DNA of 64,000 nucleotides from Candidatus Omnitrophota bacterium (lineage in GTDB: Bacteria; Omnitrophota; Gorgyraeia; Gygaellales; JAQTUX01), in the NCBI GenBank assembly GCA_028707125.1, contig JAQTUX010000001.1:1066438-1130437 (forward strand), written 5' to 3'. The position numbers and the translations under genes are program-made. Below, in pieces: positions 6,365-63,743 of this stretch (within the stretch, counting starts at the first letter, position 1; every line of letters begins with the position of its first letter). The notes under the pieces are model-generated. The model was given only the letters and a program-made list of their open reading frames with translations. It was not told the DNA's origin and ran no database searches.

Positions 6365-6373
6365 CAGCGCTCT

Positions 6374-6712: not shown

Positions 6713-6754
6713 ATACAGGGTTATTTTGAGTAGGGACTCATAATAAACCACTCG

Positions 6755-6780
6755 TTAAATATAAGTAAGTTTGAGTAAAT
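6755..6780. repeat. Left copy of 26-nt inverted repeat (TTAAATATAAGTAAGTTTGAGTAAAT) flanking the DUF134 gene
   Basis: Its reverse complement matches 7330-7355 at 22/26, including a perfect 15-mer TTAAATATAAGTAAG. Confidence 0.6.
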
Positions 6781-7150
6781 GGACCCGCGCGGAAGGCCTA
6801 AAAAGTATAAAATAGTGCGAAATGACCCCCATATCTGGCGCTTCAGCCCCAGAGGAAAGGCAGGGAGGCCGGAAGAGATCGACCTTAAGATCGAAGAATT
6901 TGAGGCATTCCGGCTGTCTGATAATGACGGCCTTAAACAGGCCCAGGCAGCCGAATTAATGCGCATATCCCAGCAAACCTTCAGCCGGCTTCTTAAGAAG
7001 GCAAGGACAACCCTGGCAGACGCCCTTGTAAACGGCAAGATAATCAAAATACAGGGTGGCTGCTATGTATTAAGTACCCGCCAGAACAATAACCACAACA
7101 ATCACGAGAAGCACGAAGCACCCAGGACCCAAGACAGAATCCCAGAATAA
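6779..7150 (+). CDS. DUF134/UPF0251 family predicted DNA-binding protein (sigma-70 region-4-like HTH)
   Basis: An N-terminal PRGRPKK... motif, then the LSDNDGLKQAQAAELMRISQQTFSRLLKKARTTLADALVNGKIIKIQGG pattern typical of DUF134. Confidence 0.65.
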   Translation: MDPRGRPKKYKIVRNDPHIWRFSPRGKAGRPEEIDLKIEEFEAFRLSDNDGLKQAQAAELMRISQQTFSRLLKKARTTLADALVNGKIIKIQGGCYVLSTRQNNNHNNHEKHEAPRTQDRIPE

Positions 7151-7329
7151 CGCTTACCACGCCGGCTCAAACCTCCGGGAGTCCCTTAGAAACCCCTCAA
7201 TTCAGCATACCCCAACTTCCTATAATATATCTTATGTTAACTTGAGCCAGCAACAAAAACATAATCTAACTAATTGTGCAATAAAGAGTTAGATATAATA
7301 AGTTTTTTCCTGTGGATAACGAATATTTC

Positions 7330-7439
7330 ATTTACTTTGACTTACTTATATTTAACTGGGGATAGATTAACCTGTTCTACTCTAATGGCTTATAAGTAAG
7401 GCGAGGATTTACTTATATTTACGCTGACTTACTTTACCC
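7330..7439. repeat. Right IR copy plus additional direct/inverted copies of the ACTTATATTTA / GACTTAC motif
   Basis: ATTTACTTTGACTTACTTATATTTAA at 7330-7355, TATAAGTAAG at 7391-7400, ATTTACTTATATTTA at 7407-7421, GACTTACTTTACCC at 7426-7439. All lie in a 300-bp AT-rich spacer. Confidence 0.55.
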
Positions 7440-7457
7440 GAAGTTCCTTAGATTTGA

Positions 7458-8303
7458 TTAGGTTGCGGAGAGTTCCCGCAGAAAAATACCGGCCCTTTCG
7501 GAAAACCTGTTTGCGGGATAATTACTGAGTATTTGGCGGTATAACAACCGCGCTTTCTCATTTCTGCCGTAAAGATGGTAATTTCTGGCCTTATAGAGCA
7601 TTCTGGCGGCCGGATCCTTGATCTTTGGCGCTGTCATGCCCAAATAGGCGTCCTGGTACACGACGGCAAACGCCCTGCCGAATATCCGGGCATATTTATT
7701 CGCGATCAAGTCAAAAAGGTGCTTTTCAGAGAGAAAATCATCGGAACGCACCGGCGCGTGCCGGATGGGATAAAGATACGCGGGAGAACCTGTCTCAGCG
7801 GTGATCTCTTCTAATGTAACTGCCTCCCCCCTATCGTTACGGTAAATAAGGTTGTGCAGCGGGTCAACAACCCCCCATTTACCTCTATAATATACTTCGG
7901 CTACTGTGTGGGGTGAGCTTGACACATCATCATTCACCATAAGGAACGCGTAGCGGCCGGATATGCCTTTCGCGGCCAGCAGCTTGCATAAAACCTTTGC
8001 CTGATAATCGCACCACCCCACCCCCTCTACCAGATAGTCAAAGGGCTTCCCCGCGTATGGCCTGCTATCGCTGAAATAATGTCCCAGGCGCGACCTCGTA
8101 TAATCAACGGCGGACTGAATCGTGCCCTCCAATGAAGCTGATGACGGCAGTTCCTTCATTGCTATTACCTGAAATGAAACCTCGTGGTAGGCATGCCTGC
8201 CCAGGGAAGAATTCGCGAACAATAAAGAAATCAGCGGCGACAAGAGTATTACTGACGCCGCCGCTATAAGGAAAATGGTGAAAATTCTCAATAAAACGCG
8301 CAT
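7458..8303 (-). CDS. Transglutaminase-like cysteine protease domain protein, membrane-anchored
   Basis: N-terminal TM helix, GVGWCDYQAKV (Cys core of the transglutaminase-like fold), and a C-terminal TPR-like segment. Confidence 0.55.
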   Translation of the reverse strand: MRVLLRIFTIFLIAAASVILLSPLISLLFANSSLGRHAYHEVSFQVIAMKELPSSASLEGTIQSAVDYTRSRLGHYFSDSRPYAGKPFDYLVEGVGWCDYQAKVLCKLLAAKGISGRYAFLMVNDDVSSSPHTVAEVYYRGKWGVVDPLHNLIYRNDRGEAVTLEEITAETGSPAYLYPIRHAPVRSDDFLSEKHLFDLIANKYARIFGRAFAVVYQDAYLGMTAPKIKDPAARMLYKARNYHLYGRNEKARLLYRQILSNYPANRFSERAGIFLRELSAT

Positions 8304-8305
8304 GC

Positions 8306-10180
8306 CTACTTGACCTGTTTAGTTGAAGCCGACCGTATCAGCCGACAGACCACCGCCTTTTCTTTCTTTCTCAGGCCGGTAAACTCGACGCCTACCATAT
8401 TATTCCTTACCCATGCCACCCTTACGGGCAAATAAAGATATTCCTTTGACCCGGGCGCTTTCAGGCCTATCTTAAGCTGCTTCTTCATTCCAAGATCAAA
8501 AGCGCTTCTGCCGGCCAGGCGCAGCCCGCCTTCGGATATGTCTACCGTGTAAGCCGAGACCCTGTCCTCATAGGGGATGATCTTTATACTGGACCTGTAA
8601 TTAAACCTCTTGAATTTCCTTACCTCAAGGCCCAGGCGCATGCTCATAATGTGTAAACATGAGATCTGCCTGACAGCAGGGCTGTCTGTATCTGAAGGAG
8701 TTGAGATCTGTATGTTTATAAAAAAGTTCTTAAGCCGGTATGACTCTAATAACCGCTTGATCTCCAGATTAAGCAAAGTATGCATGCCGCTTATTTTCGC
8801 CTCGGTCGCCTGGGGCGCTATAATGCTGAATTCAGCTCCGGGGCCTTCGTGGCTGAACACCGGGCATTGCAATTTGCCCAAAACAGCGTCAAGTTTCCGC
8901 GTGAACTCCCGGGAGGGGGCCTTTATCCTTTTCAGGAATTTACCGTAGTTAACTATGGCCAGGTGGATCAGATAAAACTGCTCGTTTTTTTCCAGCAAGC
9001 CGTTTATGTTCTCCCTCATTTGTCCAGGGAGCGGGCTTGCGCTGTAAAACAGCGGTAGCGTAAAATAGAACTTACTGCCTACGCCTAACCGGGATTCTAT
9101 CTCTATTTCTCCCCCGTGCCTCTGCACCAGTTCCTTTACTATATAAAGCCCCAGCCCTACGCCTTTTTTCTCTGAGGCAGGTGTCCGGGATACCTGCACG
9201 AACTTCGCGCACAGCCGGGGTATATCCTGCTCGGCAATGCCTACACCCGTATCCAGCACCCCTACTCTGACCCTTGCCTGCAGCAGTTCCACCTCTACGC
9301 TTACCCTCCCCCCTTCTTCCGTGAACTTTATCGCGTTGTTAATAAGGTTGGATAGGGCCTGGTTGACCCTTTCGGCGTCAATAAACAGGTTTATCTGCCC
9401 GGCAGGGATGTTATAACGCAGGGTTATCTTTTTCTGCCGCGCTAATTTCCGGAAATGCGCCGAACTATCATTGATTATGCCGCATAGATCAGCCAGCGAA
9501 TAATGCAGGGAAAACGCCCCTCTTTCAATCCTGGAGATATCAAGCAGCTCGCTTATGATCTTGTTCAACCGCTCTATATTATTCCTGCCGGTAGTAAGGA
9601 TATCCCTCTGCTTATCGTTGAGTATGCCCCCGACATTATCCAGGATAAGCATTACCGATTCCTTGATGATCGCTAAGGGTGTCCTGAGCTCATGAGAAAC
9701 GGCGGAGACAAATTCCGATTTCATCCTGTTCATTTCCTCTAACGACTCAAGGCGCTTCTCAATCTGTTCCTTCTCTTTCTGCAGGCGTTCCAGGTGGAAA
9801 CGCCGAGTTATATCCCTGGTGATACCCATAAGGCCGATGATATTGCCTTTCTCGTCATGCCTGGGTATCTTGGTGGTGGAGACATAATTGTCAATGCCGT
9901 CAGGCCTCGTTGACCTCTCGATCTTGTCAATGATGGGCTTGCCTGTGCTCATCACATATTCATCGTCCCTGGCCATTATCTCGGCGCGTTCCTTCGGGAA
10001 AAAATCAAAGTCGGTCTTGCCGGCGACTTCATCCGGCTTAAGCCCCAGGCCCTTGGCGTGGGCTTCGTTCACCAGGATAAGCCGCCCCTTTCTGTCTTTA
10101 ATATAGACGACGTCGGGAATATGATTTATAAGTTCCAAAAGGATGCTCTCGTGATACCTGTCGGTTTTCGCCTTCATCAA
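8306..10180 (-). CDS. PAS sensor histidine kinase with C-terminal PilZ domain
   Basis: PAS region, HisKA H-box SHELRTPL, HATPase_c G-boxes (DTGVGI, GVGLGL). At the C-terminus, RFNYR...VDISEGGLRL gives the PilZ RxxxR and DxSxxG motifs. Confidence 0.7.
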   Translation of the reverse strand: MMKAKTDRYHESILLELINHIPDVVYIKDRKGRLILVNEAHAKGLGLKPDEVAGKTDFDFFPKERAEIMARDDEYVMSTGKPIIDKIERSTRPDGIDNYVSTTKIPRHDEKGNIIGLMGITRDITRRFHLERLQKEKEQIEKRLESLEEMNRMKSEFVSAVSHELRTPLAIIKESVMLILDNVGGILNDKQRDILTTGRNNIERLNKIISELLDISRIERGAFSLHYSLADLCGIINDSSAHFRKLARQKKITLRYNIPAGQINLFIDAERVNQALSNLINNAIKFTEEGGRVSVEVELLQARVRVGVLDTGVGIAEQDIPRLCAKFVQVSRTPASEKKGVGLGLYIVKELVQRHGGEIEIESRLGVGSKFYFTLPLFYSASPLPGQMRENINGLLEKNEQFYLIHLAIVNYGKFLKRIKAPSREFTRKLDAVLGKLQCPVFSHEGPGAEFSIIAPQATEAKISGMHTLLNLEIKRLLESYRLKNFFINIQISTPSDTDSPAVRQISCLHIMSMRLGLEVRKFKRFNYRSSIKIIPYEDRVSAYTVDISEGGLRLAGRSAFDLGMKKQLKIGLKAPGSKEYLYLPVRVAWVRNNMVGVEFTGLRKKEKAVVCRLIRSASTKQVK

Positions 10181-10938
10181 TGCCTCCCGGAAAATGATAT
10201 TATCAAAACCGCGCAGGACAACGCCAGGCAGTAGTAGGCAAATAAATGCAATTTCGCCTTATTGAGCATGAGCGCAAGCGCCTTTAACGCCAATAAGCCG
10301 CTGAAGAAAGCGGCGATAATACCCAAATACATGGCAGGAGACAGTGTTAAGGCGTCTGTCCCTGCCTCAAGCAGGAACGCGCCGATGACTGCCGGTATGG
10401 ATGCCAGGAATGAATATCTGAATGCTCCCTGCCTGCTGAATCCCAAGAACAGCAATACGCCTATGGTAAGCCCTGAACGCGACAATCCGGGGATGATCGC
10501 AAAGCCCTGCGCTATGCCTAATATCAGAGAGTCCGATATACCTATATCCTTCAGGCCCTTGACGCCATATAGATATTTCTTTAAGCGAAAAAGCACGAGC
10601 GAAGTAAGCAATAACCCGAAAGAAACCCAAACAAGCGAATTAAACAAGGACTCAAAGAACTGCTTGCCCGCGAAGGCTACCAGGCCCGTGGCCAACGTGG
10701 TAACGGCAATATTCCTTGCCGTCTTGATGCTTTTTAAGGCCGCCAGGATATCTTTGAAAAAATAGACCAGTAAGGAAATGACCGTGCCAAGATGCAGCGC
10801 TGCCGCGACCTTCACAATTCCGCTTGTCGCGCCTAATGCCTTCTGGGCAATAACTAAATGGCCGGAACTGCTTACAGGCAGGAATTCCGTCAGGCCCTGC
10901 AATACGCCTAAAAAAATAAATTTAATTGCTTCTACCAT
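10177..10938 (-). CDS. uppP: Undecaprenyl-diphosphate phosphatase
   Basis: LGVLQGLTEFLPVSSSGHL and PGLSRSG are the conserved BacA/UppP motifs. 253 aa, polytopic. Confidence 0.85.
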   Translation of the reverse strand: MVEAIKFIFLGVLQGLTEFLPVSSSGHLVIAQKALGATSGIVKVAAALHLGTVISLLVYFFKDILAALKSIKTARNIAVTTLATGLVAFAGKQFFESLFNSLVWVSFGLLLTSLVLFRLKKYLYGVKGLKDIGISDSLILGIAQGFAIIPGLSRSGLTIGVLLFLGFSRQGAFRYSFLASIPAVIGAFLLEAGTDALTLSPAMYLGIIAAFFSGLLALKALALMLNKAKLHLFAYYCLALSCAVLIISFSGRH

Positions 10939-10958
10939 CTTAGCTTAACCTTTTCCTT

Positions 10959-11123
10959 TCTTACTTCCTGGATTGTAATTCTTTTAGGACTTCGTCAATC
11001 TGAACTGATATCTTTTTCAACATCTGTAAACTCTCCTGCTGCAGCCGCTCCTGGCGGTCATACGCCTCCTTAACGGCGCCGGCGACCTTCATCATATTGC
11101 CCATTTCCTTAAAATCAAACATG
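10959..11123 (-). CDS. Candidate small protein (54 aa, MFDFKEMGNMMKVAGAVKEAYDRQERLQQESLQ...)
   Basis: Below the ORF-track cutoff. Preceded by a G-rich RBS (GGGAGGGGGAGG) and sits between the radical SAM gene and uppP on the same strand. Confidence 0.25.
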
Positions 11124-11134
11124 CCTCCCCCTCC

Positions 11135-12091
11135 CTATTCGGTATTACGCTTTATATTCACACCCGCGAATCTCTGCAAGCCTCCTGATTCCTGCGCCCA
11201 GCCGTTATGCAGGCCGCGCTTCTCCATCGCGCGCCTGGCCTGTTCGTACTCTTCCAGAGCAGGCCTTCTGTTTATTTCAGGGAATTCCTCAGCATTATAA
11301 CAGGGAAAATACTGGCTCATCAAACTAATATAAACATCCTGCGATAATTCCTCTGATATGAACCTGAATATTTCCTCGCTGCCGGCCTGGCCCTGCGGCA
11401 GGACAAGGTGCCTGATGATCATGCCGCGCTGAATAATACCCTCTTCGTCAAATACGCCTACCCCTACTTGACGGAACATCTCCTTTACGGCAGAGCGGTT
11501 GATCAAAGGATAGTCCGGAGCAGAGGAATACTTTAAGGCCGCCTTGTCATCGGCGTATCTCATATCCGGAAGATAGATATCAATGATGCCGTCCAACAAT
11601 TCTATCATCTCGCTGAACTCGTAACCGCTGCTGTTATAGACAAGCGGGATATTCAATCCCTCCTCAATCGCGACTGTTAACGCGGACAAGATCTGCGGCA
11701 GGACATGTGTAGGCGTGACAAAATTTATATTATGGCAGCCCAATTTCTGCAAATATAGCATATATTTGGCTAACTTCCGCGGCTCTGCCTCGCTGCCCCG
11801 CGCTGACTGGCTGAACTCATAATTCTGGCAATAGGCGCATCTTAGATTACAGCCGGAGAAGAATATAGTACCTGACCCGCGGCTTCCGGATATTGCCGGC
11901 TCTTCTCCTCTGTGCGGCATATAACTGAATACACGCGCGTTAAGCCCTGTCCGGCAGAACCCCGTCTCATTCCTGAGACGGTTAACCTTGCATCCGCGCG
12001 GGCATATCCGGCAGCTCTTTAGCAGGGACGCTGCCTGCTTAGCCGCCTTTTTTAACTGCTTGAGGTTGTCCAGGTATGACGGCTGCGCCAT
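11135..12091 (-). CDS. PflX-like radical SAM protein (putative pyruvate-formate-lyase-activating-enzyme family; AmmeMemoRadiSam-type)
   Basis: CRICPRGC N-terminal cysteine cluster plus the radical SAM CNLRCAYCQN (CxxxCxxC). The annotated start overlaps the M48 gene by 53 nt, so the start is uncertain. Confidence 0.6.
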   Translation of the reverse strand: MAQPSYLDNLKQLKKAAKQAASLLKSCRICPRGCKVNRLRNETGFCRTGLNARVFSYMPHRGEEPAISGSRGSGTIFFSGCNLRCAYCQNYEFSQSARGSEAEPRKLAKYMLYLQKLGCHNINFVTPTHVLPQILSALTVAIEEGLNIPLVYNSSGYEFSEMIELLDGIIDIYLPDMRYADDKAALKYSSAPDYPLINRSAVKEMFRQVGVGVFDEEGIIQRGMIIRHLVLPQGQAGSEEIFRFISEELSQDVYISLMSQYFPCYNAEEFPEINRRPALEEYEQARRAMEKRGLHNGWAQESGGLQRFAGVNIKRNTE

Positions 12092-12869
12092 TCGGCCTTT
12101 TCACTTTGTGGATCTCCGCTTTTATATTCTCTATCCTCTCCTCAACAGCAGGGTGCGAACTTAACAAGGTAATGTGGTAGCCGCGGCCATCCTGCTTAAG
12201 GAGCTTATTGAAAAAAGAGATCATCGCCTCGGGCTTATAGCCGGACCTGTAGGCATATCTTACAGACAACTTATCCGCCTCCCTTTCGTCCTGTCTACTG
12301 TAGCCCAGCGTGATCAGGTTCTGCATTATATTTAAGGCGTTACTCAACGCGGCCGCATTTACGTTACGCAACGCGAGCGAGACCAATAGTTGATAACCCA
12401 GGCCGGCCTGCAGCCTTTTAACGGCGTGCTTTGCCGCGACATGTCCCACTTCATGCGCGATCACGCAGGCAAGTTCATCATCCGTCGCCGCTTCCATGAG
12501 CCCGGAGTTGACGTATAAAAACCCCCCGGGCAAGGCAAAGGCATTCAAATCCTTGCTCTCTACTACCTTGAAATGGTAGGACAGGTCTTTCCTGTCCGAT
12601 ACATTCACCACCTTCCTGCCTACTCTCTCCAACCTTCCTGTTACCGCGGCGTCTTTTATCAGTTTCAGTCCAAACGACATCTTCTTATCCAAAACACTCC
12701 CTAAGGCTACTTCTTGCGGAGTGTTGATCAATATCAACTCTTTTCTTTCGGTCGCCGGATTATATACGGTTATGCAACCTGAAAGCAGAATACATAAGAT
12801 AAAAAAACTTTTTAACGCGGATTCTCGCAGATTCAATTTGCGGAAATCCGCGTTAAACATTTTTCTCAC
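12039..12869 (-). CDS. M48-family zinc metalloprotease (BepA/LoiP-like), signal-anchored
   Basis: HEVGHVAAKH zinc motif (HExxH) with a downstream glutamate region, and an N-terminal signal/lipoprotein-like helix. Confidence 0.7.
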   Translation of the reverse strand: MRKMFNADFRKLNLRESALKSFFILCILLSGCITVYNPATERKELILINTPQEVALGSVLDKKMSFGLKLIKDAAVTGRLERVGRKVVNVSDRKDLSYHFKVVESKDLNAFALPGGFLYVNSGLMEAATDDELACVIAHEVGHVAAKHAVKRLQAGLGYQLLVSLALRNVNAAALSNALNIMQNLITLGYSRQDEREADKLSVRYAYRSGYKPEAMISFFNKLLKQDGRGYHITLLSSHPAVEERIENIKAEIHKVKRPNGAAVIPGQPQAVKKGG

Positions 12870-41083: not shown

Positions 41084-41154
41084 AGCGGGCGATGGGAATT
41101 GAACCCACCTATCCAGCTTGGGAAGCTGGTGTTCTACCGATGAACTACGCCCGC
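41084..41154 (-). tRNA. tRNA-Gly (anticodon CCC)
   Basis: Reverse complement reads GCGGGCG-TA-GTTC-ATCGGTA-GAAC-A-CCAGC-TTCCCAA-GCTGG-ATAG-GTGGG-TTCAATT-CCCAT-CGCCCGC-T. This folds as a cloverleaf with CCC at positions 34-36. 71 nt; no CCA encoded. Confidence 0.8.
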
Positions 41155-52384: not shown

Positions 52385-54208
52385 CTAAAATTCTATCTTG
52401 ACGCCGCTCCTGAGCGAAAAGCCGGGCATAGGATAGCCCTGTATCTGGCTGTATTTTCTGTTCAGCATATTATCGATAGACAGAGTATATTCGATATTTT
52501 TAATGAGTTGCCGCGAGGCATCCACGCTCATTACAAAGAAATGATCCAGATAGTCCGAGTTGTTTGTCTTGGTGAACCTGTTAGAAACGAACTGTCCGCC
52601 GAGTTTCACCTCCCAGCCCCAGACATCATCCGCCGTTATAAACATATCAACCTTATGCTTGGGCCTGTTAGTAAGATACTTATCCGTATCCTTGTCTTTA
52701 GACCTCAAGTAATTATAGGAAACGTCTCCTGTTAAATCAAAAAATAAGGGGAATACCGCTTTTAATTCCAACCCTTCAATCATGGCGGAATTGATATTTG
52801 TGGGCGTCCATACACCGCCGCTTCCCTCAGCCCAGTTAATCAGCTTATCCGTATCATTTCTGAAGTAAACTACCTCAATGAAATGGCCGTTGGATAACCA
52901 TTTTTGCAGGCCCATCTCGCCTGACCAGCCCACTTCCGGCTGCAGATTTGGGTTGCCTTCGTATATGCCTGCGGCAGGGTAATATAAATCATTAAACGTC
53001 GGCACCCTGAACGACCTGCCTGCGAATGAATGCAACTTTACTGAATCGTTCAGCCAGTAAGAGACGCTGAAAGAAGGCATCAGCTTCTCTCCGAAATTTG
53101 AATAGTCGTCCTGCCTTAAGGATGCCTCTATATTAAAATCATCTGACAATGTAAAGGTATTATTAAGATATATCCCCAGTAGCCGGTAGTCGTGCTTGCC
53201 GGAACTTGAGCTGTTAAGCAGGTTCTTCTGCCTGTTTAACCCAAGCAGAAACTTATACCTGTCACTGAACCTCTTTTCTATATGCCCGTCAAAGCCGCGC
53301 GCCTTGTCATTGGCCGCGTTTTTATTCAAAGGGTCCCTCTTTTCTATAAATTCAATCCGGTCAAAATTGTAATATGACTTGATAGTAAAATTTAATGTAT
53401 CATCAACCTCTGAATCCCATAATATCTGCGTATAGTTTGACTTATCTATCTGCTCATCATCTAAATCCTGCGCGTTCACCTTTCCCGGTATGCCGTGTTT
53501 TTCATAGTGCGCGCCGGTATGGACTGTGAGTTTGTTGGTTTCATTAATGTCATACACCGCTTTAAACGCCTGGATATTTGCCCTGTATTTGGAATTATCT
53601 CTGTGCCCCTGCGATGTTTTTCTAGTCCCGGATACTATATACCCTAATTTCCCGAATGTCCCCGAGTTATATAGCGTATTGATATTTGTCCTGAATGTGC
53701 CGAACTCACTCCTTATGTATGTATGCTGCTTCTTATCCGGCTCTTTTGTGATTATGTTGGCTACGCCTCCTACCGCGCTTGAGCCGTAGAGGTTTGATGC
53801 CGGCCCCCTGACTATTTCAACCCTGTCTATCATATCAAGCGGTATCTTTGCCAGGTTTGCCTGTCCGTGCCGTGAATTATTCAAGGAAACCCCGTCAAGC
53901 AGTATCAGCGTCTGGTTGTCGGTAGCCCCCCTTATACGCAGCGTCTTCTGCGCCCCTATGCCGCCGTAACTTAGCACCTGCGCCCCTGAAGCATAATCCA
54001 GCGCATCCGCTACATCGTCTATGTTTCCGGATCCAATATCTTCGCTGTCAACAATATCTAAACTTCTTGTGGTTTCCTTGTACTTCTGCTTGGAGCGCGA
54101 CGCGCTGACTACGATTTTATCCAACTCATACTCTTCGGCCAGGGCGCTGCCGCCGAACACCATCACTAAAATTAATCCCGCGATAAAAACCAAATTTCTC
54201 CTGTTCAT
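52385..54208 (-). CDS. TonB-dependent outer-membrane receptor, BtuB-like (start taken at MNRRNL signal peptide)
   Basis: Signal peptide, a plug domain with a TonB box (DKIVVSAS), a 22-strand barrel, and a C-terminal F. RBS AAGGAGAAG. Sits downstream of a B12-riboswitch-like leader. Confidence 0.75.
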   Translation of the reverse strand: MNRRNLVFIAGLILVMVFGGSALAEEYELDKIVVSASRSKQKYKETTRSLDIVDSEDIGSGNIDDVADALDYASGAQVLSYGGIGAQKTLRIRGATDNQTLILLDGVSLNNSRHGQANLAKIPLDMIDRVEIVRGPASNLYGSSAVGGVANIITKEPDKKQHTYIRSEFGTFRTNINTLYNSGTFGKLGYIVSGTRKTSQGHRDNSKYRANIQAFKAVYDINETNKLTVHTGAHYEKHGIPGKVNAQDLDDEQIDKSNYTQILWDSEVDDTLNFTIKSYYNFDRIEFIEKRDPLNKNAANDKARGFDGHIEKRFSDRYKFLLGLNRQKNLLNSSSSGKHDYRLLGIYLNNTFTLSDDFNIEASLRQDDYSNFGEKLMPSFSVSYWLNDSVKLHSFAGRSFRVPTFNDLYYPAAGIYEGNPNLQPEVGWSGEMGLQKWLSNGHFIEVVYFRNDTDKLINWAEGSGGVWTPTNINSAMIEGLELKAVFPLFFDLTGDVSYNYLRSKDKDTDKYLTNRPKHKVDMFITADDVWGWEVKLGGQFVSNRFTKTNNSDYLDHFFVMSVDASRQLIKNIEYTLSIDNMLNRKYSQIQGYPMPGFSLRSGVKIEF

Positions 54209-54340
54209 CTCTTCTTCTCCTTTCGAGAATACTTTCCGTAATAGATAATCGACCGGGCTTATGCCCTTATCGGGCAATCACCGTTGCGGGGCAGCGGAAG
54301 GATTCACACCTTCGCTTCCTTTATCTATCCGGTAACGTTG
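54209..54340 (-). promoter_or_regulatory. Cobalamin riboswitch-like leader
   Basis: The minus strand reads ..AAAGGAAGCGAAGGUGUGAAUCCUUCCGCUGCCCCGCAACGGUGA..AAGCCCGG.. This matches the conserved GGUGnnAAUCC and GCnGCCCCGCAAC core and has a B12-box-like AAGCCCGG. Confidence 0.55.
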
Positions 54341-55668: not shown

Positions 55669-56637
55669 TTAAAACATCCTCCAGTCCTTTGCCCTGATCA
55701 GCAGGATCAGGAAAAATACGCCACCGAAAAGCCCGGTGATCACCCCCACAGGCAGTTCAAGGGGCTTAACGACTGTGCGCGCGAGCGTGTCCGCCAACAC
55801 AAGAAAAGTTGCCCCTGCCAGGACAGAAGCGGGGATGAGAAATCTGTGGCCCGGCCCGACGAGCTTCCTTGTAAAATGCGGAATAACCAGCCCGACAAAA
55901 CCGATGATCCCGCAGGCAGCAACCCCTACAGCGGTGATCAGCGATGCCGCGATAAAGATTATCGCCTTTATCCTGGCGACGGCCAGCCCCAAGTGCGTTG
56001 CCTTTTCTTCGCCGAGAGTAAGGATATCAATATCCGGGCTGAGATAAAAAATAGCCAGCCAGCCAAAAACAAAAAACGGCAGCATCAATTTTAGCGTCCG
56101 CATATCCGCCAGAGAAATGTCGCCCATAAGCCAGAGTATGGCCTGATGCACATTTTCCGACTTTGCCACGGCAAAAAGGAACATAACCAACGATGAGAAT
56201 ACAAAATTCAGCATTACGCCGCCCAATATCATGCCGGTGTTGGAAAACCTCTTGTTGCCGGCGACCATATACACAAGCGCGATGCATAATATCGCCCCTG
56301 AAAACGCGCTTACAGGCAGCCAGAACGCGCCTAAACCAAGAATTATACATAAGGAAGCGCCGAACGCCGCACCGCCTGATATCCCTAATGTATAAGGGTC
56401 TGCCAGGGGATTGCTCAATACCGCCTGAAAAACGCATCCGCTTACCGCAAGGGACGCGCCTACCATAAGCGCGAGCATTACGCGCGGCAATCTGATCTTA
56501 TATAAAATGGTCCCTGCCTGGCTGTCAGCCCTGAATAAATCCGGCAAATTCACTTTGGCCGGGCCTGAGAAAAGCGAGAATACGACTGACAGGACAAGCG
56601 CGATAAACAAAACTATCAAAACAACCCGCTTGCTCAT
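55669..56637 (-). CDS. ABC transporter permease, FecCD/BtuC family
   Basis: 322 aa, ~9-10 TM helices, FecCD family conservation. Confidence 0.8.
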   Translation of the reverse strand: MSKRVVLIVLFIALVLSVVFSLFSGPAKVNLPDLFRADSQAGTILYKIRLPRVMLALMVGASLAVSGCVFQAVLSNPLADPYTLGISGGAAFGASLCIILGLGAFWLPVSAFSGAILCIALVYMVAGNKRFSNTGMILGGVMLNFVFSSLVMFLFAVAKSENVHQAILWLMGDISLADMRTLKLMLPFFVFGWLAIFYLSPDIDILTLGEEKATHLGLAVARIKAIIFIAASLITAVGVAACGIIGFVGLVIPHFTRKLVGPGHRFLIPASVLAGATFLVLADTLARTVVKPLELPVGVITGLFGGVFFLILLIRAKDWRMF

Positions 56638-57473
56638 TGCTGCCTTGCCTCCTTCACCAATCCAGCGGTCTTCTCCAGCGCGACTATAAAATTATCCGGC
56701 GTGGGTGTGCAGGCGAAATGCATATCATATACGTACACCCTGTTATTCCTCACAGCGTCTATCCCCGGAAACCTGCGCCACAGATCCAGTTCGCTGCCGG
56801 TAATGTCGCCCATTGTAACTACGATTATGATCTCCGGGTTTCTCTTAATTACCTCTTCTATGCTGACTCTGGGATAACGGCCGGCCATATCCGAAAATAT
56901 GTTCACGCCGCCTGCCCAGTTAATTATCTCATCCGTGAATGTGCCGGCTGAAGCGCTGACTATGGGCCTTGCGCCCAATTGCCAGAATATTTTTATCTTA
57001 TCCGCGGCGGCAGATTCTTTTCTGATGGCCTCGATCTTTGCATTTATGCCGTCCATGATCTGCCTTGCTGTCTCAAAGCGTCCCAGGATCACTCCCAACC
57101 TCAAGAAATTGCGTTCTATATCGCGGAATCCTTTTGTTTCGTTAAACGCGACTACGTTTAACCCCAGGGCGGCCAATTTCTTTATTGACTCCTGCCTGTT
57201 GCCTTCATTTGTGGCCAGGACCAGATCCGGCTTAAGAGACACTATTTTCTCCATACTCGGCTCAAGCACTGTCCCGATGATCTCCTTGTTTCGCGCCTCT
57301 TCGGGATATCGGCAATACGAGGTAACGCCTATTAAGGAATCCTCTGCGCCTAAAAGATATATCTCTTCAGTAATGGAAGGAGCCAGAGAAACCACCCTTT
57401 TGTGATCCGCGTACGAGGTGCCGCTGAAAAACAGCAGGAATAATGCTAATATACTTTTATATTTAACACCCAT
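56634..57473 (-). CDS. Periplasmic substrate-binding protein, BtuF/FecB-like
   Basis: Signal peptide and class III PBP fold pattern (RVVSLAPSITEEIYLLG...). Confidence 0.7.
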   Translation of the reverse strand: MGVKYKSILALFLLFFSGTSYADHKRVVSLAPSITEEIYLLGAEDSLIGVTSYCRYPEEARNKEIIGTVLEPSMEKIVSLKPDLVLATNEGNRQESIKKLAALGLNVVAFNETKGFRDIERNFLRLGVILGRFETARQIMDGINAKIEAIRKESAAADKIKIFWQLGARPIVSASAGTFTDEIINWAGGVNIFSDMAGRYPRVSIEEVIKRNPEIIIVVTMGDITGSELDLWRRFPGIDAVRNNRVYVYDMHFACTPTPDNFIVALEKTAGLVKEARQQ

Positions 57474-58111
57474 CTGTCATCAACCTTTTCAACCGCGCCT
57501 TCTTCAATCTTCAATTCCCTGGAGAATATCGGCCCGTTAAACACAAAACTGTGGTATTCCCCGTTTTCTCCGCAGGGGTCGACTCCGGCAGGAAGCCCTG
57601 ATAAAAGATCATTGTCAATTGTCCTGCCCAGTATACTCTTATCCAGTTTATCCGCCTTCACATTAATGATCTTGGATCTAAAACCTGCGCCGATGAATTC
57701 GCGCGCCAGTTTCTCCGTATCCTCTTTCCAGAGAGGGAATACCGGCTTAACCCCCGCGGCGGCGCTTACATCGCTGAGCCAATCGTAATGCTCCCGCACA
57801 AAGATATCGCCGAATATCGCGTGATCTACACCCTGTTCCTTCAGTGACTTTAAGGCAGCGGTATAAACATCCCTGGCGTTATTTCTTTCCGCGTCTTTTT
57901 GCAGAAGCTTAATGCCCATTGCCTCTGCCTGTTTTACTATCGCCTCCCTGCCAAGATTGTGCGATATAGAACACTTGCTTCCCTTCAGCGTTACGTTAAA
58001 CAGCCGTTCCACGCTATACCCGTCATTCATCGCCCTGAAAAGAGCAAGGCATGCATCCTTGCCTCCACCCCAGAGACAGACGGCCCTTCTGACCTCAGAG
58101 TTCGTATTCAT
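57446..58111 (-). CDS. Dph6/MJ0570-family PP-loop ATP pyrophosphatase
   Basis: AVCLWGGGKDAC is the SGGKDS-type PP-loop of the diphthine-ammonia-ligase-like alpha-hydrolase family. Confidence 0.5.
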   Translation of the reverse strand: MNTNSEVRRAVCLWGGGKDACLALFRAMNDGYSVERLFNVTLKGSKCSISHNLGREAIVKQAEAMGIKLLQKDAERNNARDVYTAALKSLKEQGVDHAIFGDIFVREHYDWLSDVSAAAGVKPVFPLWKEDTEKLAREFIGAGFRSKIINVKADKLDKSILGRTIDNDLLSGLPAGVDPCGENGEYHSFVFNGPIFSRELKIEEGAVEKVDDRWVLNIKVY

Positions 58112-59423
58112 ACTCTAATCCTTTCAATACCTCTGACTTGATAAATTCAGAGTATTTTTCATCCGCTATAAGTTTAAAGGCGTAAGTAATTATTTTCTTG
58201 TAAAACCGGCAAAATACCGACTTCTTATTCATACTGCCCTTATACGCGTAAAGTTCAGCCGGGCAGGGAGCGCCGCATATATTCCTTAATACGCACACAT
58301 CGCACTCCTTTATATCTTCCACTACGCGGCCGCGTATTTTCCTGAAGGCGGATGAGTCCATAGCGGAGGCGATAGAACCATCACGGAATATGTTCCCGCC
58401 GGAGAACTCTCTTAAGCCCGCAAATTCACCGCAAGGTATCATATCTCCGTCCGCGGTTATGTTCAGGAAAACCCTGCCGCCTCCACAAGGCGAGATATCG
58501 CACATAAGACGGCGCGCCATAGGCGCGACTATGGCAAGGATAACGTTCTCAAAGTTTCCGATCGCTATTTTGCGGCCGGATTTAAGCGACAGACGCGTAG
58601 CCGTCTTAACAGCAAGCAGGAAATACTTAGCCATATCCGCCTGTTTCGGCCTTACCTTACGCGAATGTTTCTGCGTCAGGCGCACAGGGTTAAGTAAGGC
58701 GCAGGGCACCCTAAGCTTATGCAGAAAGCTTACAATTTCCGGCAATTGGCGCACGTTGAATTTATTAATGGTCGTGATCACATTCAGCCGCGGGTATCCG
58801 TTAAACCATTTTAACGCCCTTACGGCGCATTTGAAATTGCCTCCGCCCTTTGATGAACGCGCCTTATTGTTGGACATCTCATCATATGAATCCAGCGATA
58901 TGCCCACATTTACCCTGTATTTTATCAGGAAATCAACATCCTTTTTTTCCAGCAGGATGGCGTTTGTCTGAACACCGAAGAGTATCCTGCCGCTGAATTT
59001 CCTCACCGCCAGAAACAGCAGGTCTTTCTTCAGCAGCGGCTCTGCCGCGTGGAATATGACTAACGGCTTAGACGCGCCCTCTGTCTTGAAGTGCCGGATA
59101 ATACTGTTAAGGATAAACTCTAATTTATCCCAGTCCAGTTCAGCGCCTGACTGTCGTATCTGGTGAGGTATATAGCAATACGAGCAATTGGCGTTGCATC
59201 TATCTGTCAGATTGACGTAGACCGCGGCAAGCTTTCTATTCTTCCTGAAGGCATTGAAATCCCGGCTGATCTTAGGGTTGACCCGCTCATAGAGGGAGAC
59301 CGCATCCTGAAAGCCGCCGGCCTTCGGATCCGATCCCCCTCTTGATATCGCCCAGAACACATTGTCCGGGTCGATCATTAAATTGATATTTTTAGCTATT
59401 CTTCTCTTCTCCATAGACCACAT
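58095..59423 (-). CDS. Radical SAM enzyme with C-terminal SPASM domain and ~100-aa N-terminal extension
   Basis: CNANCSYC (Cx3Cx2C) at about residue 116. A Cys-rich C-terminus (CDISPCGGG...CGEF...CDVCVLRNICGAPCP) gives the SPASM auxiliary clusters. Confidence 0.7.
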   Translation of the reverse strand: MWSMEKRRIAKNINLMIDPDNVFWAISRGGSDPKAGGFQDAVSLYERVNPKISRDFNAFRKNRKLAAVYVNLTDRCNANCSYCYIPHQIRQSGAELDWDKLEFILNSIIRHFKTEGASKPLVIFHAAEPLLKKDLLFLAVRKFSGRILFGVQTNAILLEKKDVDFLIKYRVNVGISLDSYDEMSNNKARSSKGGGNFKCAVRALKWFNGYPRLNVITTINKFNVRQLPEIVSFLHKLRVPCALLNPVRLTQKHSRKVRPKQADMAKYFLLAVKTATRLSLKSGRKIAIGNFENVILAIVAPMARRLMCDISPCGGGRVFLNITADGDMIPCGEFAGLREFSGGNIFRDGSIASAMDSSAFRKIRGRVVEDIKECDVCVLRNICGAPCPAELYAYKGSMNKKSVFCRFYKKIITYAFKLIADEKYSEFIKSEVLKGLEYEYEL

Positions 59424-59532
59424 AATGCGAAAGCCCTGCTCCTGATTTATTGCATTTTGCCCGATAAGATACTGTTTCTTTTTTTTCCTCTGTCTTTTTC
59501 TCCGTGCATTTACCCCGCTTAGAACAACTCAT
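59392..59532 (-). CDS. Candidate 46-aa Cys-containing precursor-like peptide immediately upstream of the radical SAM/SPASM gene
   Basis: MSCSKRGKCTEKKTEEKKETVSYRAKCNKSGAGLSHYVVYGEEKNS. Preceded by a strong RBS GAGGAGGTG with a 6-nt spacer. Overlaps the radical SAM start by 32 nt. Confidence 0.3.
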   Translation of the reverse strand: MSCSKRGKCTEKKTEEKKETVSYRAKCNKSGAGLSHYVVYGEEKNS

Positions 59533-59547
59533 TTTGTTCACCTCCTC

Positions 59548-61044
59548 TCATGACTTAAGCAACCTGTAAATTTCCTTCATATCAATATTTTTCCTGACCA
59601 GCCGCGCCAGCTTATCTAAGTTGCCGTTGAGAGACGATCCGCTATTCCCCGCTTTATAGCCCAGGCCTTTGGCAGCGCACAGGCGCGTAATGAAATCCTT
59701 ACGGAATGGATCATTATCAAAGACGCCGTGGATGTATGTGCCCCATACCCTGCCCGTATCATTTGAGGCGCCGTCGCCTATATCTGCCTTCTTGTTATTT
59801 CGCCGCGTGATTTTAAATAACGGCCTTGAGCCGTTTAACAGGCGCGACTGTCCGTGGTGGATTTCGTATCCCTGAAGCATCAGGCCTGACGCCATATGCC
59901 TTGCCTTAACCTGGAATGTGGCCTTCTTTCCGCTGAAGGCAGTCATTACTTCCAACAGGCTAAAGCCCTTGACGCCTCCTGACTTTGATTCTATCCTGCC
60001 GTTATCTGTGATACTCCTGCCCAACATCTGATATCCGCCGCAGATGCCGATCACTTCACATCCCTTCTTCAGTAAATGATCCAGCTTCTTTGCCAGGCCT
60101 GCCTTGCGCAGCGCCGCGAGGTCTGAAATAGTATTTTTGCTGCCGGGGATTATCAAAACATCCGGCTCCGCGATCTCGTTTATGTCCCTGATGTAATTCA
60201 GGTTAACCACCGGCTCTTTTTCCAACGCGTCAAAATCGGTAAAATTAGAGATATGCGGAAGATAAAGCACATCTATGTTGATCTTATCACGTTCATATCC
60301 GCGCTGCCCCAACCTTTCAAGCGAAACAGAGTCCTCCTCGGGCAGGCGTATGGTATCAGGGCCGAAGAACGGCACCACACCTAAGACCTTTTTCCCTGTC
60401 TTTTTTTCAAGGAAACTCAAGCCCCCTTTGAGCAGCCGCTTATCGCCCCTGAACTTATTTATTATGAACCCGGCTACCTGCCTTCTCTCATCAGGCGTGA
60501 GCAGCTCCATTGTCCCGACTAGAGACGCGAATACGCCGCCTTTGTCAATATCGGCGACTATTATGACCGGGGCATTGGCGAACTTTGCCATGCGGGTATT
60601 GACGATGTCGTGCCGCTTCAGATTTATCTCCGCGATACTGCCCGCTCCCTCTATCACGACAACATTAAACTCAGCCGATAATCTCCTGAAAGAATCCTCA
60701 ACCGTTTTCCTCAGCCCGGCCTTTGCCTTCGTGTAGCGCAACGCGGACATATTTCCTAACGGCCTGCCTCTTACTATTACCTGCGCGCCGGTATCGCGCG
60801 TCGGTTTTAATAATATGGGGTTCATATCTACTGTGGGGTTTATCCTGGCCGCCTCTGCCTGCATTGCCTGCGCCCTGCCTATTTCACCGCCGTCTCGCGT
60901 AACGCAAGAATTAAGCGCCATATTCTGCGCCTTGAACGGCGCCACCTCATAGCCGTCCTGCCGAAAAATCCTGCAAAGCGCGGCAACCAGTACGCTTTTA
61001 CCTACTCCAGAACCTGTGCCGCAGATCTGTATCGCTTTAGACAT
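59548..61044 (-). CDS. cobQ: Cobyric acid synthase
   Basis: 498 aa with an N-terminal P-loop GTGSGVGKS and a C-terminal glutamine amidotransferase domain (GICGGYQMLG). Confidence 0.85.
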   Translation of the reverse strand: MSKAIQICGTGSGVGKSVLVAALCRIFRQDGYEVAPFKAQNMALNSCVTRDGGEIGRAQAMQAEAARINPTVDMNPILLKPTRDTGAQVIVRGRPLGNMSALRYTKAKAGLRKTVEDSFRRLSAEFNVVVIEGAGSIAEINLKRHDIVNTRMAKFANAPVIIVADIDKGGVFASLVGTMELLTPDERRQVAGFIINKFRGDKRLLKGGLSFLEKKTGKKVLGVVPFFGPDTIRLPEEDSVSLERLGQRGYERDKINIDVLYLPHISNFTDFDALEKEPVVNLNYIRDINEIAEPDVLIIPGSKNTISDLAALRKAGLAKKLDHLLKKGCEVIGICGGYQMLGRSITDNGRIESKSGGVKGFSLLEVMTAFSGKKATFQVKARHMASGLMLQGYEIHHGQSRLLNGSRPLFKITRRNNKKADIGDGASNDTGRVWGTYIHGVFDNDPFRKDFITRLCAAKGLGYKAGNSGSSLNGNLDKLARLVRKNIDMKEIYRLLKS

Positions 61045-61948
61045 TTAATAATACTCCCGAAACCAAAGTGATCATCGCGCAAGCATAACTTAATTTTATG
61101 CTTTCTGATATATGGATAATATCCGGGGCGCTGTTGCCTTTGCCGAAAACCGGCTTTTCTATCGCCTGTCCCTGGTAGTGATTTACCCCGCCTATTTCAA
61201 TGCCTAACGCCCCGGCAAACCCTGCCTGAATTATTGAAGTATCCAGCCGCCGGCTTGGCCTGAATGCCTCACGCCAGTTCTTCCTCAGGATAAATGCTGC
61301 GATAGCAACAACGGCCGAAGACAACATAGAAGGAATGATATTAAGGAAATGATCCATCCGCGCGCTTGCCCAGCCAAAATCCCTGTATTTCTCATTCCTG
61401 TATCCTACCATTGAGTCAAGCGTGTTTATTGCCTTATACATCCAGGCAAGCGGTATGCCGCCTAAAAAGGCAAAGAATATAGGAGCGATTATGCCGTCAA
61501 CCGTGCTTTCCGCGGTCGTCTCAACGGCTGCCCGCGCGATATCGCCTTTATCCAGATCGCCGGTATCCCTGCCGACAACCTTGGAGAGCTCCTTCCGCGC
61601 CAGTTCAATATCGCTGTTTTTAAGCGCTCTGCTTACGGATTCAACGTGCGCCTTCAGGTCTTTGATGCTGATCACAAAGTAGAACAGCAGCGCGGCAACA
61701 GCCGTGCCTAAGGCCGCGTTCATCGCAAAAAGCAGCTTCAGGGCCAACCATGCCAGCCCCGGCCAGAATACGGCGATAGTTAAAGCGAATATTATCCCGT
61801 TGATCCTGTCGTTATGGCTCAACTTCCTGAAATACTTCTCTGAGGCGCCTATCTGCCTGCCCAATAAACGCACAGGATGCCATTTAAGCCATTGCGGGTC
61901 GCCCAGCCACAAGTCCAGGAGAAAACCTATCACGATCGCTATTGTCAT
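61037..61948 (-). CDS. cbiB: Adenosylcobinamide-phosphate synthase
   Basis: 303 aa polytopic protein with CbiB/CobD family conservation. Confidence 0.8.
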   Translation of the reverse strand: MTIAIVIGFLLDLWLGDPQWLKWHPVRLLGRQIGASEKYFRKLSHNDRINGIIFALTIAVFWPGLAWLALKLLFAMNAALGTAVAALLFYFVISIKDLKAHVESVSRALKNSDIELARKELSKVVGRDTGDLDKGDIARAAVETTAESTVDGIIAPIFFAFLGGIPLAWMYKAINTLDSMVGYRNEKYRDFGWASARMDHFLNIIPSMLSSAVVAIAAFILRKNWREAFRPSRRLDTSIIQAGFAGALGIEIGGVNHYQGQAIEKPVFGKGNSAPDIIHISESIKLSYACAMITLVSGVLLNV

Positions 61949-62997
61949 ATTAATATCTTTTTTAGCTCATTGACCAAACGCAGATTCTCTTTTCTCGTCC
62001 TGACCGCCACTCTGAAATACTTACTCCCCAGCCCGCGGAAAGTAGAGCAATCGCGTATGAGTATCCCCTTCCTGCCCAATAAATCAGCCAGCCGGCTTGA
62101 ATTAACGCTGCTTTTACAAAAAATAAAATTGGCGGTTGGAACTGACGGCTTGACCCCATCTATCAGGCAGAGCTGCCTGTATAGATACTCCCGTTCCCTG
62201 AACATAAATTCCCTGCTTTTTTCAATAAACCTTCTGTCTTTCAGCAATGCCTCTGAAATGAGCTGCGCGGGATAATTGACCATCCAGGGATAACGGAATT
62301 TATTCAATTTTGACAGCGTCCTGTTATGCGCCGCCACATACCCCGCTCTCAAGCCGGCAAGCGCGAAGAATTTGGTAAGCGATCCGAGGATAATTATCCT
62401 GCTGTTCTTGAGCGCCTGCCTTATCAAGGTATACCTGTCTTTGTCCTTTACGAAATCCATAAACACTTCGTCAATTAGAAAATAAGCCGATGGTAATCTT
62501 TTAATAAAACTTATTAGATCTCCCGCCTCAAACAGGTCTGCCGTAGGGTTGTTTGGGTTGCAGATAAATACAATATCAGGCCTTCGACCGCGCTCAGGGT
62601 TGAAATCACCGATTTCGCGACGATAGATCTTTGAACCGACCGCGTTAAGCGCCCTTTCGTATTCGGAAAACGCTGGCGTAAAGATAAGCGCGCCGCGGGG
62701 GCGTAAAGCTGACACGACAAGATAAATGAGTTCAATTGAGCCGCAACCCGGCATTATATTATGCCGATCGACGCCTAGATATCCGGCAATGGCCTTTGTC
62801 AGGCCCGCGGCATCTGGCTGAGGATAACGGCGTATCTTGGTGAAATTGTCACGGATCAATTTCCGTATCGCGGGCGGATGACGCAGGGGATTTATGCTCG
62901 CGCTGAAATCCACTATTTTATCTTCAGGTATGCCGTACTGCCCTGATGCCGCCTTTATATCTCCACCGTGGTATGCCGCCTGCCTGCTCTCTTTCAT
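61945..62997 (-). CDS. cobD: L-threonine-O-3-phosphate decarboxylase (class I/II aminotransferase fold)
   Basis: PLP-lysine motif GSLTKFFALAGLRAGY; 350 aa; sits in a cobalamin operon. Confidence 0.7.
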   Translation of the reverse strand: MKESRQAAYHGGDIKAASGQYGIPEDKIVDFSASINPLRHPPAIRKLIRDNFTKIRRYPQPDAAGLTKAIAGYLGVDRHNIMPGCGSIELIYLVVSALRPRGALIFTPAFSEYERALNAVGSKIYRREIGDFNPERGRRPDIVFICNPNNPTADLFEAGDLISFIKRLPSAYFLIDEVFMDFVKDKDRYTLIRQALKNSRIIILGSLTKFFALAGLRAGYVAAHNRTLSKLNKFRYPWMVNYPAQLISEALLKDRRFIEKSREFMFREREYLYRQLCLIDGVKPSVPTANFIFCKSSVNSSRLADLLGRKGILIRDCSTFRGLGSKYFRVAVRTRKENLRLVNELKKILI

Positions 62998-63743
62998 ATG
63001 GCAAGAATGATCAGTGTGACTGCTTCCGTAAACTCAATTATAGCTCCGAGGTTATCGCCTGTTATGCCGCCGAATGTCCGGCTTAACACAAAAGAAAACA
63101 ACGCGGCTAATACGCATATGACCGGAAAAAATAATACTCCTTTGGCGCCAAGCGCGATGCCGGCTATGACTAAAGCGGTGATAGCGGCGATAACAACGGT
63201 TTTAGGGCGGATATTGTCAAAAAATGCTTTTGCCTTACCGGACTCCCTTGGATAACTGAATAAAAAAATTGGCAGCGTTACGCTGAATCTTCCCAGAACA
63301 GGAGCAACTATTAATGCGCCTGTCCTCATGCTGCCCAGGGAATGAAGGGCGAAAACCTTAAACAGAATAAGGAATACTACCGCGGCCATACCGAACGCCC
63401 CTATCCTGCTGTCCCTCATGATCTCAAGCATTGCTTGTCTGGGCTTTCCGCTGCCTAACGCGTCAAAGGTATCTGCCGTCCCGTCAAGATGCATCCCGCC
63501 TGTAATGAGCAGCCATAATCCGGCTAATATAACGCTAAGAAGCAAAGGCGGCAGTATGCCTGAAAGCAAGGCACTTACTCCGGCCAACAGCAGGCCAATA
63601 AACAATCCCACAACCGGAAAATAGATCAGGGACGCGGCAATGCCGCGGTCCTTCAACTCCCCCCGTATTCTGACCGGCAGTATCGTAAGGAATTGCAGCG
63701 CGATAAGCAGTCCTTTCATATTATTTATCTCTCTCGGATACAT
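62994..63743 (-). CDS. cobS: Adenosylcobinamide-GDP ribazoletransferase (cobalamin synthase)
   Basis: 249 aa polytopic; CobS family. Confidence 0.8.

Follow-up and report, generated by a model that had tools for sequence, protein, structure and literature searches.

The locus described here raises the question of why a short peptide gene, a radical S-adenosylmethionine (SAM)/SPASM gene and a PP-loop gene lie inside a cobalamin operon, and whether the three work together. It is found in a 64,000-nucleotide stretch of a Candidatus Omnitrophota genome (GCA_028707125.1, contig JAQTUX010000001.1, positions 1,066,438 to 1,130,437), which we call the window; coordinates are counted from its first letter. 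A first-pass annotation, made from the letters alone, had described the three open reading frames (ORFs) as a module resembling those for peptides made by the ribosome and modified post-translationally (RiPPs), nested between cobQ and a btuFCD-like transporter. Sequence, Pfam and NCBIfam analyses confirm all three ORFs in this position, on the minus strand, at the coordinates given below. The peptide-maturase pair was also recognized correctly; the module was over-extended to the PP-loop gene, to a RiPP recognition element (RRE) in the maturase and to several cysteines in the peptide. We suggest, with a probability of about 75%, that the locus consists of two separate things: a precursor peptide and its maturase, CbpA and CbpB, which would form an intracellular helper pair, and an independent enzyme of the DUF71-B12 group.

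Is the short ORF a gene? It spans positions 59392..59532 including the stop codon (minus strand), encodes the 46-residue peptide MSCSKRGKCTEKKTEEKKETVSYRAKCNKSGAGLSHYVVYGEEKNS, with cysteines at positions 3, 9 and 27, and is deposited in GenBank as a “hypothetical protein” (MDD4910155.1). Its Shine-Dalgarno sequence, GAGGAGGTG (59539..59547, minus strand), is read directly 6 nt upstream of the ATG, right after the stop codon of cobQ (59548-59550). This element had been singled out for its strength. The heptamer GGAGGTG has only four occurrences in the window, not above chance expectation for the motif; thus, it is the position of GAGGAGGTG that carries the weight. An ORF tool returns a 49-residue version of the peptide, with a GTG within the Shine-Dalgarno sequence as its start; the protein collection contains the 46-residue version but not this one. 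The ORF sits immediately upstream of the radical SAM gene and overlaps its start (start codon at 59423) by 32 nt, as first described.

Homology identifies the peptide. A hidden Markov model (HMM) built from 73 syntenic peptides, with the window peptide excluded, matches the ORF at E=1.2e-11 (45.6 bits), and this is the only match of the model in the six-frame translation of the window. Comparison with a close relative, L086, whose radical SAM protein is 84% identical, shows a 27-residue core whose amino acid sequence is unchanged and whose codons show four synonymous substitutions, against four amino acid replacements and a one-codon indel in the leader. Purifying selection on the core leaves this signature in the sequence. 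The conserved core of the window peptide, VSYRAKCNKSGAGLSHYVVYGEEKNS (residues 21-46; 59395..59472, minus strand), holds Cys27 and the invariant G-L-S-H-Y in a conservation table of 77 peptides. Judged by its sequence, the 46-residue ORF is a real gene, a homologue of CbpA, and can be annotated as cbpA.

To follow the pair across genomes, we inspected the DNA upstream of the radical SAM gene in 80 orthologous cbpB loci (L001-L080). A regular-expression scan found a same-strand ORF of 40-70 residues upstream of cbpB in 74 loci, and a relaxed search added one more (L004). Three loci with almost no upstream DNA (L019, L066 and L069) were left out as uninformative. In 75 of the 77 informative loci, which represent at least nine phyla, cbpA, an ORF of 40-60 residues, lies directly upstream of cbpB. 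The pair is conserved and its synteny is kept, the outcome that the first-pass annotation had proposed to look for in other genomes. A short ORF paired with a radical SAM gene in cobalamin operons is the defining property of the families TIGR04164 and TIGR04163, indicating that the two genes are a genuine precursor-peptide/maturase pair.

The 77 peptides share a strongly conserved C-terminal core with the consensus [SA][YF][RH]xKCxKTANGL[ST]H[FY]V. G-L-[ST]-H-[FY] is invariant, the cysteine is present in 76 peptides, the preceding lysine and the threonine in 74 each, and the asparagine in 75. The leaders are variable, 3-40 residues long, and contain 31% lysine. Thus, the three cysteines reported for the window peptide are present, but only Cys27 is conserved in the homologues; the other two belong to the leader. 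The subgroup formed by L031, L040, L050, L068, L070 and L077 ends in ...NGLSH[YF]VP.EKK.LV, without the MYGD segment of most members, so the Y-G-D stretch is unlikely to be the essential modification site. The family extends well beyond the sampled loci: a profile of 24 CbpA peptides retrieves 691 clusters of 43-72 residues out of 5.8 billion proteins. None of the best 120 of these clusters is named CbpA, and most are unnamed or hypothetical.

The DNA between the two genes is also informative. Of the 67 loci whose spacer is 60 nt or longer, 57 have a strong, GC-rich hairpin after the cbpA stop codon (median z of -4.86 against mononucleotide shuffles); the example in L018 (7896-7923) is terminator-like. 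A hairpin of this kind is commonly seen where a precursor is made in larger amounts than its maturase, and it fits over-production of the substrate peptide. The clade of the window and L086 differs from the usual arrangement of CbpA/CbpB loci in this respect: instead of a hairpin-bearing spacer, cbpA and cbpB share the 32-nt overlap, which is coding in two frames.

The partner gene, cbpB (58095..59423, minus strand), encodes a 442-residue radical SAM/SPASM protein. It scores 461.9 bits against TIGR04163, “peptide-modifying radical SAM enzyme CbpB” (cutoff 375), and the alignment spans positions 11-426 of the 428 in the profile. GenBank already lists a protein of 100% identity, from a metagenome-assembled genome (MAG) of Candidatus Omnitrophica, under the name CbpB. 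Pfam recognizes its Radical_SAM and SPASM domains. The next-best families stay below their own cutoffs: PapB at 110.8 bits against 340, anSME at 99.4 against 349, and DynA, YhhB and HxsB lower still. The CbpB family is large, with 2444 proteins at E<=1e-30 and at least 594 species-representative genomes; carriers include Omnitrophota, Nitrospirota, Nitrospinota, Planctomycetota and Bacillota as well as Firestonebacteria, Hydrogenedentota, Deferribacteres and Deltaproteobacteria.

Two other identities were considered for the enzyme and rejected. It is not an anSME, as it misses the family cutoff and the cysteine of CbpA stands in a KCNKS/KCAKT context, without the C/SxP/AxR target motif. By family score, it is also outside the sactipeptide and ranthipeptide maturases: it lies far below the cutoffs of PapB and of the SCIFF maturases (71.9 bits against 425), as well as of StsB (73.2 against 625), and its substrate has one conserved cysteine rather than many.

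The structural features of CbpB fit a two-cluster SPASM enzyme. The radical SAM motif CNANCSYC (59175..59198, minus strand) contributes Cys76, Cys80 and Cys83, and the SPASM region (58209..58502, minus strand) contributes cysteines 308, 313, 331, 374, 377, 383, 387 and 405. All eleven are invariant in 76 homologues, and by sequence the eight in the SPASM region would be enough for full ligation of two auxiliary [4Fe-4S] clusters. The AlphaFold (AF2) model has a mean predicted local distance difference test (pLDDT) score of 89.8. In a Foldseek search, its nearest structure is CteB, the SCIFF thioether maturase (E=4.5e-18), followed by anSME, ChlB, TigE, SuiB and SkfB; a sequence-profile search of the Protein Data Bank (PDB) gives its top matches in the same order, with CteB at E=6e-24. 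CteB, which acts on CteA (PDB 5wgg/5why), is thus the best structural match and PapB the best non-self HMM match. CbpB shares with both the radical SAM core, the two-cluster SPASM region and a cysteine-containing peptide substrate. It differs from CteB in that the two are 16-17% identical, the RRE of the CteB type is missing and the substrate has a single conserved cysteine, not several.

The N-terminus of CbpB had been described as about 100 residues ahead of the Cx3Cx2C motif, possibly forming an RRE-type peptide-binding domain. The motif begins at Cys76, which reduces the extension to about 75 residues (65-75). In the model, residues 1-64 (59232..59423, minus strand) form a small domain of three beta-strands (5-10, 13-18 and 23-28) and one long helix (39-60), followed by the TIM-barrel core; the family keeps F23, W24, Y45 and R60 without exception. 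All comparisons with an RRE were negative. Neither PqqD (PF05402) nor any other N-terminal Pfam domain was found in 76 CbpB family members, even at E<=10; the CbpB family profile aligns with CteB only from CteB residue 94 onwards, past its RRE; and for the isolated N-terminal domain (pLDDT 84), the best PDB match has E=1.4, the RRE protein TbiB1 appearing in that list at E=3.5 with a probability of 0.08. An RRE, a winged helix-turn-helix of three strands and three helices, is therefore not recognizable in CbpB. Going by the model, the N-terminus appears to be a family-specific three-strand-plus-one-helix module, which may dock the peptide by beta-strand augmentation.

The surroundings of the pair are dominated by cobalamin genes. 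On the minus strand, cobS (62994-63743), cobD (61945-62997), cbiB (61037-61948) and cobQ (59548-61044) precede cbpA, cbpB and the PP-loop gene; a btuF-like gene (56634-57473) follows and, further downstream, btuC, an ABC ATPase gene, cobA/O and a gene for a TonB-dependent B12-type receptor. The identities of these neighbours on both sides (CobS, CobD, CbiB and CobQ; BtuF, BtuC, the ABC ATPase, CobA/O and the receptor) are backed by NCBIfam. Because consecutive genes overlap by 32 nt (cbpA/cbpB), 17 nt (cbpB/PP-loop gene) and 28 nt (PP-loop gene/btuF), the stretch from cbpA on reads as a single translationally coupled operon. The context recurs elsewhere: clear homologues of the cob or btu genes of the window are present in at least 61 of the 80 cbpB loci, and CobT homologues occur in 37 loci and CobU in 31. 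Among the rest, several have other cob genes: L018 contains a cbiA-like gene, cbiX-cbiC, cbiM, cbiQ, an ABC ATPase gene in the cbiO position, cbpA-cbpB-cobO and corrin methylases; cbiD follows cbpB in L016 and L029, and cobT follows it in L057.

Regulation points in the same direction. Five of the nine loci scanned have cobalamin riboswitches upstream of the gene strings that contain cbpAB, on the same strand as these. Within the window, no cobalamin riboswitch reaches the gathering threshold upstream of the cbpA operon, the head of which probably lies beyond position 64000. An adenosylcobalamin riboswitch match (RF01482; 54193-54345, minus strand) scores 49.4 bits, against a gathering threshold of 50 (E=1.1e-6). 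It has cobA/O on one side and, on the other, the gene for the TonB-dependent receptor (52385-54277), the expression of which it presumably controls. At the corresponding place in L086, a DUF4430 gene (5496-5924, a weak Pfam match) stands between cobO and the receptor gene, where the window has only the riboswitch-like element. The sole Rfam match that reaches the gathering threshold in the whole window is a tRNA gene (41084-41154, minus strand).

We also looked for further partners of the pair. An AsnB-like gene was considered as a third component and set aside: it adjoins cbpA or cbpB in only four of the 80 loci (L036, 5960-6892; L045, 6875-7999; L053, approximately 6065-6994; L059, 7868-8797). 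Its product, of about 310 residues, consists of an Asn_synthase domain with the PP-loop SGGLD and a cysteine-rich, zinc-ribbon-like C-terminal tail; in L045, the reading frame runs into cbpA with no stop codon in between. An occasional additional partner is one possibility, an ordinary gene of the cob operon the other. Five loci (L036, 9286-9999; L023, L045, L053 and L075) have a second, small radical SAM gene directly downstream of cbpB or near it, for a protein of about 237 residues with a Fer4_12 domain and no SPASM region. Pfam scans of a handful of loci and homology to the window genes gave no obvious candidate for an exporter, a leader protease or an immunity gene.

The third gene of the proposed module is of another kind. 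It encodes a 221-residue PP-loop ATP pyrophosphatase (57446..58111, minus strand), a paralogue of Dph6, with the motifs WGGGKD (58055-58072) and ENGEYH (57551-57568). Pfam assigns it to Diphthami_syn_2 (E=1e-45); the Dph6 equivalog TIGR03679 gives 118.3 bits and misses its cutoff of 197.3. The DUF71/COG2102 family has been split into true Dph6 and a bacterial and archaeal DUF71-B12 subgroup. Genes of this subgroup are clustered with btuCDF (75 of 102 cases) or cbiB (18 of 102); its proteins carry ENGE[F/Y]H in place of the Dph6 signature EGGE/DxE188 and are predicted to act in B12 salvage, possibly in a manner analogous to CbiZ (de Crecy-Lagard et al., 2012; PMC3541065). In the window protein, ENGEYH occupies residues 182-187, the position of EGGEFE in the PF0828/3rjz alignment, and its gene overlaps btuF and is three genes away from cbiB; both marks of the subgroup are present. 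A diphthine-ammonia ligase was rejected on the missed cutoff, the histidine at the catalytic E188 position and the bacterial host. The protein is thus like DUF71-B12 in its PP-loop, its ENGEYH motif and its btuFCD/cbiB neighbourhood, and the function of that subgroup is itself a prediction.

The distribution of the PP-loop gene separates it from the pair. A homologue occurs in only 15 of the 80 cbpB loci: in six it comes right after cbpB, and in the others it has some other place in the operon. Of the three closest homologues examined, two lie in B12 loci without cbpAB and the third in an unrelated context. L081/L082 have the order PP-loop gene-btuF-cobO-fecCD-ABC and L083 has cbiD...cbiG-PP-loop gene, both without cbpAB; a CbpA-like peptide was not detected in L081-L085. 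Because the gene is sparse in cbpB loci and present where cbpAB is absent, we concluded from the sequence comparisons that it is probably an independent, B12-associated DUF71-B12 neighbour and not a dedicated peptide tailoring enzyme. The inclusion of this gene in the peptide module, as originally proposed, does not hold.

How well do other explanations account for these data? A three-gene RiPP module, in which the Dph6-like enzyme would amidate or ligate the CbpB-modified peptide, is chemically conceivable, as PP-loop enzymes adenylate carboxylates and could act on the peptide C-terminus or a side chain. It would explain why the gene follows cbpB directly, with an overlap, in the window and in L086, and why it comes right after cbpB in six loci. 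It is distinctly unlikely, given the 15 of 80 loci and the varying operon position, the closest homologues in B12 transport or biosynthesis loci that lack cbpAB, and a subgroup (btuCDF 75/102, cbiB 18/102) that was defined with no reference to any peptide. The opposite simplification, that the mini-ORF is a chance ORF or a mere translational-coupling leader of the radical SAM gene, would suit an ORF that is short, overlaps the cbpB start codon and stays under the TIGR04164 cutoff. Homology to the syntenic peptides at E=1.2e-11, a core that diverges from that of L086 by synonymous changes only and the existence of 691 clusters of homologous peptides leave this reading a negligible probability; within what sequence can tell, it is already refuted by the conservation data.

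The remaining alternatives accept the pair and assign it another role. A peptide next to a radical SAM/SPASM gene resembles the architecture of sactipeptide and ranthipeptide clusters, and CbpA might be a secreted antimicrobial or signalling RiPP that lies in the cob operon by chance. We consider this very unlikely: a near-invariant core over at least nine phyla with a variable leader is the reverse of typical bacteriocins, the Pfam-scanned loci have cob and btu genes as neighbours and yielded no gene for an exporter, a leader peptidase or immunity, and cobalamin riboswitches control the operons. Alternatively, CbpB could act on a corrinoid or lower-ligand precursor, with CbpA as an accessory scaffold or carrier, or joined to the corrinoid. 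The almost exclusive occurrence of the pair in cobalamin operons under B12 riboswitches, a CbpA core with an invariant histidine that is conserved like a cofactor precursor or binding partner, and the lack of a detectable RRE would all be compatible with this. Its weakness is that the nearest relatives of CbpB (CteB, PapB, anSME, ChlB, SuiB and SkfB) are all peptide or protein maturases, and that strict gene pairing and a hairpin after cbpA are typical of a precursor and its maturase; a corrinoid substrate is therefore unlikely.

Based on these observations, we return to CbpA and CbpB as a helper pair beside an independent DUF71-B12 enzyme. CbpB would dock the conserved part of CbpA, possibly through its small N-terminal beta-sheet domain, cleave SAM to a 5'-deoxyadenosyl radical, abstract a hydrogen atom from the CbpA core and install one intramolecular modification there. 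CteB and PapB, the nearest characterized relatives, make cysteine thioethers. Because of this relationship, and because CbpA keeps one cysteine, the modification may by analogy be a single thioether from Cys27 to a nearby residue, for example the conserved Thr/Ser at i+3; this assignment is tentative, at clearly less than even odds. An antibiotic is the less likely product; the near-constant core across phyla, the lack of an obvious exporter, protease or immunity gene in the loci inspected and the riboswitches point rather to a helper of cobamide synthesis or salvage that would stay inside the cell and act like a cofactor or chaperone. The DUF71-B12 enzyme would catalyse an ATP-dependent adenylation, predicted to act on corrinoids in salvage, and would travel with btuFCD and cbiB independently of cbpAB.

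Several points weigh against this interpretation. TIGR04164, the curated CbpA model, gives the window peptide 22.9 bits and its cutoff of 35 is not reached; the window core AKCNKSGAGLSHYVVYGEEKNS departs from the majority consensus LKCAKTANGLSHFVMYGD..., with K-C and G-L-S-H-Y kept. Seven other, clearly syntenic peptides (L004, L005, L016, L018, L029, L031 and L078) also miss the cutoff, at 0-23.7 bits, which suggests that the model is narrow rather than that the window peptide is unrelated. An annotation gap is the consequence: the curated model misses every member tested, and GenBank lists the window peptide and consensus-type peptides alike as “hypothetical protein”. In L012 and L072, cbpB has ample upstream DNA and an HMM search did not detect cbpA. 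The CbpA of L070 (4495-4626), KGAKTSNGLSHF, has a glycine in place of the cysteine that is conserved in all other peptides. The pair of L078, from a deltaproteobacterial MAG (7257-12251), lies outside any cobalamin context, flanked by a HEPN-domain gene, a U32 peptidase gene, a BMFP-domain gene and an ABC1 kinase gene; the last three may, in our reading, be a UbiU/V-UbiK-UbiB set. CbpB has an invariant Cys308 that is missing in CteB and shared with anSME. With this extra cysteine, the first auxiliary cluster may be fully ligated, which would exclude binding of the substrate cysteine to the cluster as in CteB. The absence of exporter, protease and immunity genes rests on the handful of loci scanned, not on a complete annotation of all 80. 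Finally, no experiment or publication on CbpA or CbpB was found in the searchable literature, and the chemistry and role proposed here are inferred.

Comparison with known systems separates what is catalogued from what may be new. CbpA/CbpB is an already catalogued kind, TIGR04163/TIGR04164 (rSAM_cobopep/cobo_pep), which the locus matches in its short upstream peptide, its cobalamin operon and an enzyme above the cutoff; the enzyme is already named CbpB in this genome. For the PP-loop gene, too, the subgroup has been described, in 2012. In its organization, the pair has in common with PqqA/PqqE and MftA/MftC a small peptide with a conserved modified region, a radical SAM/SPASM maturase and an operon of cofactor or primary metabolism instead of a bacteriocin cluster. 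CbpB falls outside the PqqE and MftC families, and the locus has neither an RRE partner of the PqqD/MftB type nor a processing peptidase; the analogy would be one of function only. With an intracellular role tied to cobamide metabolism, CbpA/CbpB would resemble the pyrroloquinoline quinone (PQQ) or mycofactocin systems more than a bacteriocin. On a more far-reaching reading, modified CbpA could serve cobamide metabolism alone, as a cofactor, ligand or carrier derived from a peptide, a specific role that we regard as doubtful. One form of it would be a small cobalt- or corrinoid-binding chaperone that uses the invariant histidine, held in a Cys-derived macrocycle; another would be a scaffold peptide as the source of a cobamide building block.

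The practical gain is modest: a “hypothetical” 46-residue gene becomes cbpA, and a Dph6-like gene becomes DUF71-B12 instead of diphthine-ammonia ligase. The system itself is large: it spans at least nine phyla and at least 594 species genomes, counts about 700 clusters of peptides and is regulated by B12 riboswitches. If CbpA were indeed such a cofactor, ligand or carrier, B12 biosynthesis or salvage would have its first housekeeping RiPP, as a counterpart of PQQ or mycofactocin. A near-invariant core of a ribosomal peptide inside cobalamin operons suggests an unrecognized helper step in anaerobic cobamide synthesis or salvage.

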